Virus record (IMG/VR): IMGVR_UViG_3300036832_000855
Location: 58,420-122,419 of that record
Origin: a virus
Length of the DNA stretch: 64,000 bases
Strand: one strand, 5' to 3'
The notes beneath the pieces were generated by a model. That model did no database searches and was not told where the DNA came from. It worked only from the letters and a program-made list of their open reading frames with translations. The position numbers and the translations under genes were made by a program. Numbering within the stretch: the first letter of the stretch is position 1; each line of letters begins with the position of its first letter. This document shows positions 39,371-40,598 of this stretch, one piece after another.

Positions 39371-39416
39371 TGCGTCTCCTCGGTCGGGGGACGGAGGCCC
39401 TCTCGCCTCCACCTAC

Positions 39417-39445
39417 AGGATAACACATGATGCGCGCTAAGGCAA
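39417..39445 (-). promoter_or_regulatory. SigA-like promoter with operator
   Basis: TTGCCT-TAGCGCGCATCATGTGT(17)-TATCCT. Confidence 0.75.
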
Positions 39446-39640
39446 GTCGAGCGCGGCGATCAGCTCGCCGACAGCGCGGCGCCGGGCAGCCCGGTCGCAC
39501 TCGACCCAGGCGTACAGCCAGAGCACGTTCTTGACGTCCGGCGGCGCCAGCGCGCACTCGATCTCGGCCTCGATCCGCTCGAACGGGATCCCCGCGGCCA
39601 TCATGGCGTCAATCTCGGCAGCTCCCATTGTGACTCCCAT
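39437..39640 (-). CDS. Hypothetical protein
   Basis: 67-aa helical ORF. Confidence 0.55.
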   Translation of the reverse strand: MGVTMGAAEIDAMMAAGIPFERIEAEIECALAPPDVKNVLWLYAWVECDRAARRRAVGELIAALDLP

Positions 39641-39854
39641 CCTCGGCGTCGTCCCGGCTGCCGGGATACTGCCAGGCCAGTCGGGGCCTGGCTAGCGCCC
39701 GTCGTGAGCAATCCCGCACGTAGCGAGAACTTCGGCCACGTGCGGACGTTGCTATTACAGTGAAGAAGTCTTGCGCAAGCGCGGCCGGGCGCGCCCAGCG
39801 CCCCCCAGCCCAAGCCCCCATGGGCGGCGCGTCCGGCCGACGAACTTCGAAAGG

Positions 39855-39927
39855 CAGCGCCAGGGAGGGTCGAACTCCCGCTTCCGCCTTGAGAGGGCGG
39901 CGTCCTGGCCACCTAGACGATGGCGCC
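39855..39927 (-). tRNA. tRNA-Glu (anticodon CTC)
   Basis: GGCGCCA/TGGCGCT acceptor, GTCTAGGTGGCCAGGAC D arm, CCGCC-CTCTCAA-GGCGG anticodon arm, GGGAG-TTCGACC-CTCCC T arm. Confidence 0.92.
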
Positions 39928-39964
39928 GTGGGTACTGCGGTGCCCCGGCGGCTATCCTATCCCG

Positions 39965-40312
39965 ATGCCGTACAGGGACCGTGAACAGCAGCGGCGCTAT
40001 CAACGCGAGCGCCTAGCTGCGATCCGAGCCACATGGATGGCCGGACACGTCTGTGAAGAATGCGGATCCACGGAGCGACTCGAAGTTCATCACCGCGACC
40101 CAGACCAGAAGATTGACCACCGCGTGTGGAGTTGGAGCACGGAGCGTCGGGAGGCTGAACTCGCCAAGTGCGCGGTGCTCTGTCGCCCCTGTCATAGCAA
40201 GGCGCATCGTCGGGGCGAGCACGGCAAGGGGTCGTCTCACTACCTCCGTGGCTGCCGGTGCGAGCCCTGCGTCGCCTACAACCGCGCACGGCGCGCGAGG
40301 CAACGCAGGTAA
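39965..40312 (+). CDS. HNH endonuclease
   Basis: CEEC...LEVHHRDP...KCAVLCRPCH and a C-terminal GCRCEPC motif; leaderless TATCCT -10. Confidence 0.85.
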   Translation: MPYRDREQQRRYQRERLAAIRATWMAGHVCEECGSTERLEVHHRDPDQKIDHRVWSWSTERREAELAKCAVLCRPCHSKAHRRGEHGKGSSHYLRGCRCEPCVAYNRARRARQRR

Positions 40313-40317
40313 TCGCT

Positions 40318-40427
40318 TGGTTACCCCGTCGAGGAGTCGAACCCGATCCTCCGGGATCTCGGCGCTGGCTCGGCGGATCGAGCGCTCGGCCTTGATCTCC
40401 GCTCCGGAGAAGAACCGCTCCGGGGCC
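40318..40427 (-). ncRNA. tRNA-like RNA with T arm, acceptor stem and encoded CCA but a non-canonical core
   Basis: GGCCCCG...TCGGG-TTCGACT-CC(T)CGA-CGGGGTA-A-CCA; own promoter at 40452-40480. Confidence 0.5.
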
Positions 40428-40451
40428 GCGGCCCCTTAGGACCGCACCTAC

Positions 40452-40480
40452 AAGATAGCACACATCGTGCGCCAGCGCAA
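40452..40480 (-). promoter_or_regulatory. SigA-like promoter with operator
   Basis: TTGCGC-TGGCGCACGATGTGTGC(17)-TATCTT. Confidence 0.75.
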
Positions 40481-40483
40481 GGG

Positions 40484-40513
40484 GAAAGGGCCGGATTCTC
40501 GTCCGACCCTCTC
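40484..40513 (-). terminator. Hairpin terminator/processing stem after the tRNA-like gene
   Basis: GAGAGGGTCGGA/TCCGGCCCTTTC 12-bp stem including G-U pairs on the minus strand. Confidence 0.5.
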
Positions 40514-40514
40514 C

Positions 40515-40598
40515 GGGCTGGTAGTGGGACTCGAACCCACGACCTTCGGCGCGCGCTAGAGGACTCGCCCCGACGAGCTGCCGCTGCTCCATACCGCC
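40515..40598 (-). tRNA. Aberrant initiator-tRNA-like RNA with an enlarged anticodon arm
   Basis: TGGAGCAGCGGCAGCTCGTCGGG...CCGAAGGTCGTGGGTTCGAGTCCCAC matches the tRNA-fMet body; the anticodon loop is replaced by GCGAGTCCTCTAGCGCGC; bulged A in the acceptor stem. Confidence 0.65.

Follow-up and report, generated by a model that had tools for sequence, protein, structure and literature searches.

A conserved, structured tRNA-like RNA gene in a small lineage of related soil phages

What is encoded by a short stretch of phage DNA that can be folded with the acceptor stem and the T arm of a tRNA but with a long helical arm in place of the D and anticodon arms? The question is raised by the 110 nucleotides (nt) at positions 40318-40427, minus strand (40427 to 40318), of the 64,000-nt stretch of virus DNA analyzed here (the window), which is the right half (positions 58420-122419) of a 122,419-bp IMG/VR record with direct terminal repeats. 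An earlier note on this DNA delimited the element and described it as a deliberately expressed, non-decoding tRNA mimic. The window's genome (hereafter G000; G001, G002, G008, G009 and G011 denote related virus records) has a G+C content of 68%, encodes a tail sheath and a Phage_capsid_4 capsid protein, and carries most of its genes, along with the element, on the minus strand; its nearest cultured relatives by protein are actinobacteriophages, at no more than 37% identity. The comparison with related records presented here identifies the element as a conserved, structured tRNA-like RNA gene of a small lineage of related soil phages that are represented by uncultured myovirus records.

The element is present as a single copy in 4 of the 31 related records scanned, namely, the window's genome, G001 (107 kb), G002 (110 kb) and G009, the capsid proteins of which are 81-89% identical. 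These relatives were reached by different routes: G001 via a neighbor protein, G002 by a pattern of two sequence blocks, and G009 by a covariance model, R1, at 86.8 bits. The records scanned with R1 comprised 28 with capsid proteins of 79-93% identity and one with 25%. The model scores 87-132 bits on the four element-bearing records, and a second model, R2, built from all four copies, scores 112-125 bits; the next best matches do not exceed 21 bits. Three other records with R1 matches at E≤1 scored only 12-14 bits, and the best R1 match outside the family among the 28 related records (14.2 bits) overlaps a genuine tRNA-Met gene. When a 1.2-kb region around the element was compared with G001 using blastn, the only matches were the tRNA-Glu gene (82%), the element itself (76%) and copies of the promoter-like cassette described below; the spacers adjoining the element do not align between the same genomes.

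The four copies share a consensus order of parts: a 6-bp acceptor-like stem, an 8-9-nt linker, a long bulged arm and a 5-6-bp T-like hairpin that follows without a spacer, and RNAalifold returns the same three-way fold from three and from four sequences. The acceptor, the tail, the T arm and the basal helix of the arm can be read directly from the window, as the earlier note had it. The acceptor GGCCCCG pairs with CGGGGUA, with a G/A mismatch at 1:72 and a G.U pair at 2:71, and AACCA comes after. The 5' strand of the consensus stem, GCCCCG (40421-40426), pairs with 40323-40328, and its six pairs are 100% paired in the four sequences, with one pair changed from G-C to A-U and one from G.U to G-C. 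The single-stranded linker GAGCGGUUC (40412-40420), with an invariant GG at 40414-40415 in all four copies, replaces the D arm. The long arm (40347-40411) comprises an 8-bp basal helix, in which UUCUCCGG (40411-40404) pairs with CCGGAGGA (40354-40347), a 6-nt bulge AGYGGA (40398-40403), a GAUC/GAUC helix, a variable middle part, and an apical hairpin with the loop AUCC(G/A)C (40373-40378). The T-like hairpin UCGGG-UUCGACU-CC(U)CGA (40329-40346), with one bulged U in the window, abuts both the long arm and the acceptor 3' strand, CGGGGU, which with the tail AACCA occupies 40318-40328. The acceptor and the T-like stem together make up 12 bp, the length of a tRNA minihelix; they are split as 6+6 in G001, G002 and G009, and in the window as 6 bp (plus the G/A at 1:72) and 5 bp with the bulge, and all T-like loops are 7 nt long.

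The invariant bases cluster in the long arm (GGAGYGGAGAUC, AUCC(G/A)C and AGAUCCCGG), where the bulge is invariant except for the Y and the apical loop is invariant except for one G/A position. The outer helix of the core hairpin previously described is retained by the relatives; the inner GCGCU/AGCGC helix is complementary in the window, but what the relatives keep is an overlapping apical hairpin, GCUCG-AUCCGC-CGAGC. The T-like loops read UUCGACU in the window, UUUGAUU in G002, CUCAGUU in G009 and CUCGGCU in G001. Thus, the consensus T loop (U54-U55-C56-R57-A58) initially recognized in the window fits, or nearly fits, there and in G002, but not in the other two copies; a joint change of positions 54 and 58 turns U/A into C/G, and the second base, U, is invariant. 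The invariance of the linker GG and of this second U agrees with the contact that forms the elbow of tRNA and, from what is known of tRNA and transfer-messenger RNA (tmRNA), we infer that the linker GG contacts U55/C56 of the T-like loop.

Covariation in relatives had been proposed as a check, and compensatory changes on both sides were indeed found in 7 of the 30 pairs across the four sequences; in shuffled alignments, the mean number of such pairs is 2.4, and none of the 500 shuffles reach 7. On the MAFFT alignment, 97.5% of the 118 pair cells are standard, and in a control in which the partners were slid by 1-3 columns, 31-57% of the cells pair and 0-2 pairs show double changes. Each helix that varies contains at least one compensated pair. 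Double changes are seen in three of the six pairs of the T-like hairpin and in two apical pairs; the basal helix is 100% paired, with a U-A to C-G change along with several one-sided changes, and the pairing amounts to 100% in the acceptor (helix 1) and 95.7% in the T-like helix (helix 6). The view that the element is a non-decoding RNA, not a decaying tRNA, is therefore upheld, given the compensated pairs and the non-canonical architecture kept by the relatives: no normal tRNA occupies the element's place in any of the four copies, and no one copy comes nearer to such a tRNA than the rest.

A protein-coding reading was considered and rejected, as three-frame translations reveal no ORF (open reading frame) common to the four copies; the frame that is open in the window is split over two frames in G002, and the alignment gaps are 1-2 nt long. 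The statement that no ORF lies behind the element is confirmed in that no ORF with a start codon follows, the frame open across the element having no ATG, GTG or TTG until 40303, antisense to an HNH endonuclease gene. Inspection by eye for conserved pairing of the bulge and the loop with ribosome-binding regions or the 16S 3' end revealed nothing conserved. ARAGORN and the Rfam models for tRNA, tmRNA and YrlA RNA, which had been proposed as checks, did not detect the element. ARAGORN makes no call at the element either by default or in relaxed mode (introns, lowered threshold), the latter yielding 107 calls genome-wide and hence being of no evidential use either way; around the element, the default run calls only tRNA-Glu(CUC) and a "tRNA-Thr(agt)" at 40515-40598. 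Rfam gave no tRNA match at the element, whether at the gathering threshold, in a 3-kb stretch at E≤10 or in 136-nt slices; its other matches, apart from tRNA-Glu and a match to the T arm of G002 described below, were due to chance. Identification of the element as a canonical tRNA (RF00005) was accordingly rejected: there is no D arm, no 7-nt anticodon loop and no call by a tRNA finder.

Upstream of the element lies a promoter-like cassette (40445-40480, minus strand) that consists of TTGCGC, 17 nt and TGC-TATCTT, with an internal imperfect inverted repeat GCACGATGTGTGC; written out, it is TTGCG..CGCACGAYGTGTGCTAT..T, with a small hairpin after it, and its -10-like TATCTT ends 24 nt before the first G of the element. 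The 122-kb genome contains seven copies of the cassette with at most 9 mismatches in 36 positions, all on the minus strand. After each of the other six come a small hairpin and then a ribosome-binding site of the GGAG type with its start codon, whereas at the locus in question it is the element that comes after the hairpin. The same cassette is found upstream of the element in all four copies, in agreement with the earlier attribution of a promoter of its own to the element; a scan with a generic sigma-70 consensus called no promoter at the cassette, and it is the repetition of the cassette that suggests its action as a promoter. The 5' leader hairpin CGGUCC-UAAG-GGGCCG (40429-40444, minus strand) is part of the cassette module, with equivalents after the other cassettes and in the relatives' copies, and would be removed by RNase P.

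Downstream, in the same predicted transcription unit, is the gene for tRNA-Glu(CUC) (39853-39927, minus strand), which is called by ARAGORN and scores 55.2 bits with Rfam. It is the downstream partner of the element in three of the four copies (the window, G001 and G009) and is missing at this position in G002. The spacer between the two is about 110 nt in G009 and 190 nt in G001, and in the window it holds the HNH endonuclease gene (39920-40312, plus strand; Pfam HNH, E 5.2e-5; phrog_4234, E 4.5e-31 from residue 16), a window-specific insertion, on the opposite strand, that is missing from the spacer in G001 and G009. The HNH gene is of the homing type; blastn and megablast searches against 50,697 phage records yielded nothing but a match of this gene to mycobacteriophage Myrna (71% over 134 nt), where its only relative at the DNA level in that collection lies. 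Beyond tRNA-Glu, a conserved non-coding stretch (39380-39860, minus strand), GUUCGGCCG..GCGCGCUGCCCUGGGGG..GCACGCCCGGCCGAGCUUUUGCAAGAUCC, is common to the window, G009 and G008 (alignment A4); it looks like a possible terminator followed by a second type of promoter or leader for the next operon.

The 27 records without the element are mostly fragments shorter than 50 kb, and only G008 and G011 cover the locus. In G008 (125 kb, complete), an upstream tRNA-like gene and its terminator are followed directly by the genes that follow tRNA-Glu in the window. Because the entire block of cassette, element and tRNA-Glu is missing from this complete relative, the block behaves as an accessory module. 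The locus shows many insertions and deletions, including the HNH insertion, a 53-nt insertion in G001, the loss in G008 and the presence of a different RNA in G011. The latter is an RNA-like stretch of about 237 nt (locus L082, 1622-1858) found at the element's place, behind the same cassette; its last parts are a T arm with the loop UUCGAAU, an acceptor-like strand rich in C and the tail GCCA (sequence CCACCCC, G, CCA), and its 3' half folds as a four-arm cloverleaf, with no call from ARAGORN or Rfam. Downstream of the tRNA-like RNAs, G002 (L015, 4975-5330) and G011 (L082, 1860-2200) share a non-coding block of about 300 nt that contains several hairpins, for example, GGGACCGCU(U)AGUCCC, and has no Rfam match.

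Searches beyond this set of records did not enlarge the family. An exact 21-mer search of viral contigs gave no matches; degenerate two-block patterns recovered only G001, G002 and G009 from viral contigs; and a scan with neighbor proteins led only to G008 and G009. Among metagenome contigs, the two-block patterns matched 17 stretches, one of which is real as judged by its flanks and is a second copy of G002. Three stretches that matched the patterns in bacterial and archaeal genome contigs were judged to be chance occurrences, with partial R2 matches of 20.9 and 14.8 bits in two of them and none at E≤1 in the third.

What, then, does this RNA do? Taking together the observed sequence, conservation, covarying fold and genomic context, we tentatively favor, at somewhat less than an even chance, a functional, trans-acting, non-decoding mimic of tRNA or tmRNA that is processed in the manner of a tRNA. 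The RNA would be transcribed from the repeated cassette promoter at the head of a small RNA operon, of which tRNA-Glu would usually be a further product. The acceptor-like stem would stack on the T-like hairpin, 12 bp in total, and the linker GG and the T-like loop would probably form a tRNA elbow. Because of this stacked stem and probable elbow, host RNase P, 3' trimming and a CCA-adding enzyme may treat the element as a tRNA, and the phage itself encodes an enzyme of the CCA-adding type; a stable RNA of about 105 nt would result. In layout, the RNA corresponds to the tRNA-like domain of tmRNA. Having no D stem and no anticodon loop, in place of which a rigid bulged arm would stand, it cannot decode. 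It would instead compete for, or recruit, a protein that recognizes tRNA or tmRNA by its acceptor/elbow face, with the bulge AGYGGA and the apical loop AUCC(G/A)C supplying specificity. The candidate targets are SmpB, with a resulting block of trans-translation as reported for an RNA of phage DS6A that consists of such a domain only, or a host toxin that modifies tRNA 3' ends: the layout of the element and the DS6A precedent suggest the former, and the CCA-adding/HD enzyme, together with the known toxSAS and MenT toxins of tRNA 3' ends, suggests acceptor-end toxins.

A number of observations weigh against this interpretation. The family consists of only four members, two of which are close to each other, and the pair counts come from these four sequences, from which the fold itself was derived. 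The window copy folds no better than shuffled sequences (z-score of the minimum free energy, 0.06; 104 of 200 shuffles are as stable). The hallmarks of tRNA are not conserved: CCA is encoded in one of the four copies, the T-loop consensus is found in two, and the T stem of the window is bulged. The outermost stem pair is G.U in two copies and G-C in two, at 2:71 (or 1:72) and not at 3:70, and the tmRNA model RF00023 has no match at E≤10 in any of five phage records (G000, G001, G002, G009 and G011). No partner protein came to light: the SmpB and RtcB families each have no match in six phage records, and the TROVE domain (PF05731) has none at E≤1 in the window's genome. The complete relative G008 does without the element, the cassette and tRNA-Glu alike, and a function other than tRNA mimicry would likewise account for the strong sequence conservation of the long arm. 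Nor is the T-loop word enriched (9 matches compared to 5.6 expected at no more than one mismatch). The window sequence alone does not exceed chance, but conservation and covarying pairs in the four copies do. As for the 3' end, described as CCA in the earlier note, this holds for the window, which has the tail AACCA, but not for the relatives, which have AGAG, ACCC and ACCG, so that ACC is encoded in three of the four copies. The absence of CCA in the relatives does not argue against 3' ends of the tRNA type, because the tRNA-Glu genes of these phages also lack a fully encoded CCA, with CCU or CUC following instead.

The concentration of invariant bases in the arm, together with the variable T loop and 3' tail, makes a serious rival of the possibility that the tRNA-like part is a mere scaffold for processing and stability and that the long arm is the working part, a regulatory or protein-binding RNA comparable to RNAC and RNAD of phage T4. 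The predicted co-transcription with a tRNA would suit such a scaffold, and there is a precedent in the two small RNAs that T4 produces from its tRNA region and to which no role has been assigned (PMC3014915). No target of the arm was found, however, and the invariant linker GG and second T-loop U would be needless in a mere scaffold, so that we consider this explanation, serious as it is, unlikely.

Improbable, in our estimate, is the more specific alternative that the element is a tmRNA derivative without a coding sequence, consisting of the tRNA-like domain (TLD) only, which titrates host SmpB and stops trans-translation during infection. Hudson, Lau and Williams list "Mycobacterium phage DS6A (TLD only)" and say of a similar molecule that it is a strong inhibitor of tmRNA, perhaps by titrating SmpB (PMC4131195); the statement is repeated in a 2025 database paper (PMC11915505). 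The element has the DS6A order of parts: the D stem is missing, the anticodon position is occupied by a long capped helix, and the acceptor stem is abutted by a T arm. The T arm of G002 matches the T-arm consensus of the tmRNA model at 17 of 18 positions. Yet RF00023, which finds nothing at E≤10 in the phage records listed above, scores 43.2 bits on DS6A (JN698994, 28478-28560), fitting the whole model into 83 nt, and on a 136-nt slice of G002, it gives a T-arm match of 7.9 bits only. Conversely, R1 has no match in DS6A, the alanine identity pair G3:U70 is missing from the element, and two of the four T loops are not T-loop-like.

Still less probable appears a sponge for host toxins that act on the acceptor end, such as the toxSAS pyrophosphokinases or the MenT nucleotidyltransferases; the earlier note put forward an idea of this kind, a decoy for CCA-targeting toxins or tRNA nucleases. 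Such toxins exist and read the acceptor stem, as indicated in several reports (10.1101/2021.04.30.441581, 10.1101/2024.07.05.602228, PMC10435456, PMC9712102), and the acceptor/T minihelix is the conserved tRNA-like part of the element. A candidate phage enzyme suggests that maintenance of 3' ends matters: the 1150-aa ORF at G000:10708-14160, minus strand, outside the window (locus L127, 209-3661), contains the complete domain set of a CCA-adding enzyme (PolyA_pol head, PolyA_pol_RNAbd, HD and tRNA_NucTran2_2) along with DUF7178 and a weak HD_4 match, and is predicted from its sequence to be a fusion of a phage enzyme of the CCA-adding type with HD domains. The PolyA_pol domain is also found in G002, G009 and G008, that is, also in a phage without the element; CCA is encoded in only one of the four copies, and it is the long arm, for which such a decoy would have no use, that holds the most invariant bases. 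The suggested relevance of the element to a RelA/SpoT-like effector nearby proved weak, as RelA_SpoT (PF04607) has no match at E≤1 in the window's genome and, in the 929-aa ORF, Pfam sees only a Zeta_toxin domain.

The element could also be a functionless, decaying tRNA or tmRNA pseudogene or a recombination scar, considering the bulged T stem and the 1:72 mismatch in the window copy, the hotspot of insertions and deletions in which it lies, and the neighboring tRNA-like gene that is likewise non-canonical. Decay is, however, very unlikely because the pairs are compensated, with double changes that keep the pairs in every varying helix; moreover, the unpaired motifs are invariant, the adjoining spacers do not align, and no copy is closer to a normal tRNA. 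Hardly to be entertained are a function in cis, as the leader or as a processing signal of tRNA-Glu or genes downstream, and a phage attachment site with a tRNA 3' end: the element does lie directly behind the promoter-like cassette and, in three of the four copies, upstream of tRNA-Glu, but tRNA-Glu is missing after the element in G002, the intervening spacer is not the same in the other three copies, no terminator-like site comes after the element, and both acceptor strands are present, unlike in an att core, with no tyrosine integrase (Phage_integrase, PF00589) at E≤1 in the window's genome, where serine integrases were not searched for, so that an attP with a tRNA 3' fragment is unlikely as well.

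Several other genes were examined as context of the element. The gene at 40515-40598 (minus strand, 84 nt), labeled "tRNA-Thr(agt)" by ARAGORN and without an Rfam tRNA call, is a second remodeled tRNA-like gene. Its D and T arms are normal, one base is bulged out of the acceptor 3' strand, and the place of the anticodon arm is taken by a covarying stem of 8 bp, with double changes in three pairs, under a variable loop of 6-12 nt; the gene is kept in G009, G008 and G011. A terminator-like hairpin lies by it at 40489-40509. Proteins with a HicA_toxin domain flank the RNA island in G002 (L015, 4445-4828, plus strand) and in G001 (L010, 1854-2246, minus strand); they consist of 127 and 130 aa, with E of about 4e-17, and share a 65-aa N-terminal extension, and the window's genome has no HicA match. 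Of the 227 ORFs of the window's genome, 10 have matches in G001, G002 and G009 but not in G008, and most of these are shadow frames of a tail-fiber gene or matches of collagen repeats. One solid case is a 192-aa ORF (G000:27171-27749, minus strand; locus L122, 672-1250) that is matched at 65-69% identity in the three element-bearing relatives but not in G008, and that neither belongs to a Pfam or PHROG family nor has an informative Atlas neighbor; it is a lead only, its co-occurrence with the element carrying no weight with a single negative genome.

Taken as a whole, the RNA island of tRNA look-alikes and the predicted CCA-adding/HD enzyme could form an RNA-based counter-defense, a proposition that we regard as rather doubtful. 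The island would consist of the TLD-shaped element and the tRNA-like RNA whose anticodon arm is rebuilt, joined in one relative by a third RNA, which ends in CCA. These mimics would soak up host factors that use or attack acceptor ends (SmpB, toxSAS and MenT-type toxins), and the enzyme would keep the ends of the phage tRNAs intact.

Phage tRNA genes are usually interpreted as devices for codon supply or for evasion of defense. Non-decoding tRNA mimics are hardly documented, and the DS6A TLD-only RNA is the sole printed case that we found. A second, sequence-unrelated family with the same layout and compensatory changes would suggest that anticodon-less mimicry of tRNA or tmRNA recurs among phages. 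The element is a compact object for testing the substrate needs of RNase P, CCA-adding enzymes, SmpB and acceptor-end toxins, as well as the blocking of actinobacterial trans-translation or tRNA-end toxins by an RNA and the existence of natural tRNA scaffolds; because the family is small, its practical value is limited for now.

How does the element compare with known RNAs? With canonical tRNAs, it shares the coaxial stack of acceptor and T type of 12 bp, the GG at the D-loop position, the invariant second U of the T loop, the tail ACCA in the window and the predicted co-transcription with a real tRNA, and the nearest match of its model outside the family is a tRNA-Met; it differs in that the D stem, the 7-nt anticodon loop and the variable region are all missing. 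YrlA RNAs combine a tRNA-mimicking module with a long protein-binding helix and are bound by Rsr/Ro60. The element is likewise a non-coding RNA that joins a tRNA-like module with a long helix, but the ends of YrlA RNA form the long helix, whereas those of the element form an acceptor-like stem; with this topology, no Rfam match and no TROVE/Rsr gene in the genome, YrlA identity is excluded. RNAC and RNAD of T4 have tRNA-like ends. Like the element, they are small non-tRNA RNAs that come from a phage tRNA cluster, which makes them a loose analog, by description only, from phages of a different host phylum. Of the tmRNA type, the element has the feature that it lacks a D stem, with an 8-9-nt linker and an 8-bp helix that leads into a 65-nt arm in place of the anticodon arm; despite this DS6A-like topology, membership in the tmRNA family was rejected, as there is no RF00023 match and no G3:U70. 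The closest resemblance in layout is nonetheless to the DS6A TLD-only RNA, with the same part order of acceptor, single-stranded linker, capped helix for the anticodon arm and T arm, both RNAs being about 85-110 nt long, free of a coding sequence and derived from phages of the actinobacteriophage type. The DS6A RNA has G3:U70 and a consensus T loop, whereas the element lacks G3:U70, has an arm that is twice as long and contains a conserved 6-nt bulge, has no spacer between the arm and the T stem, and sits in a tRNA island. The element is a new variant of the rare kind of RNA that the DS6A TLD-only RNA represents.

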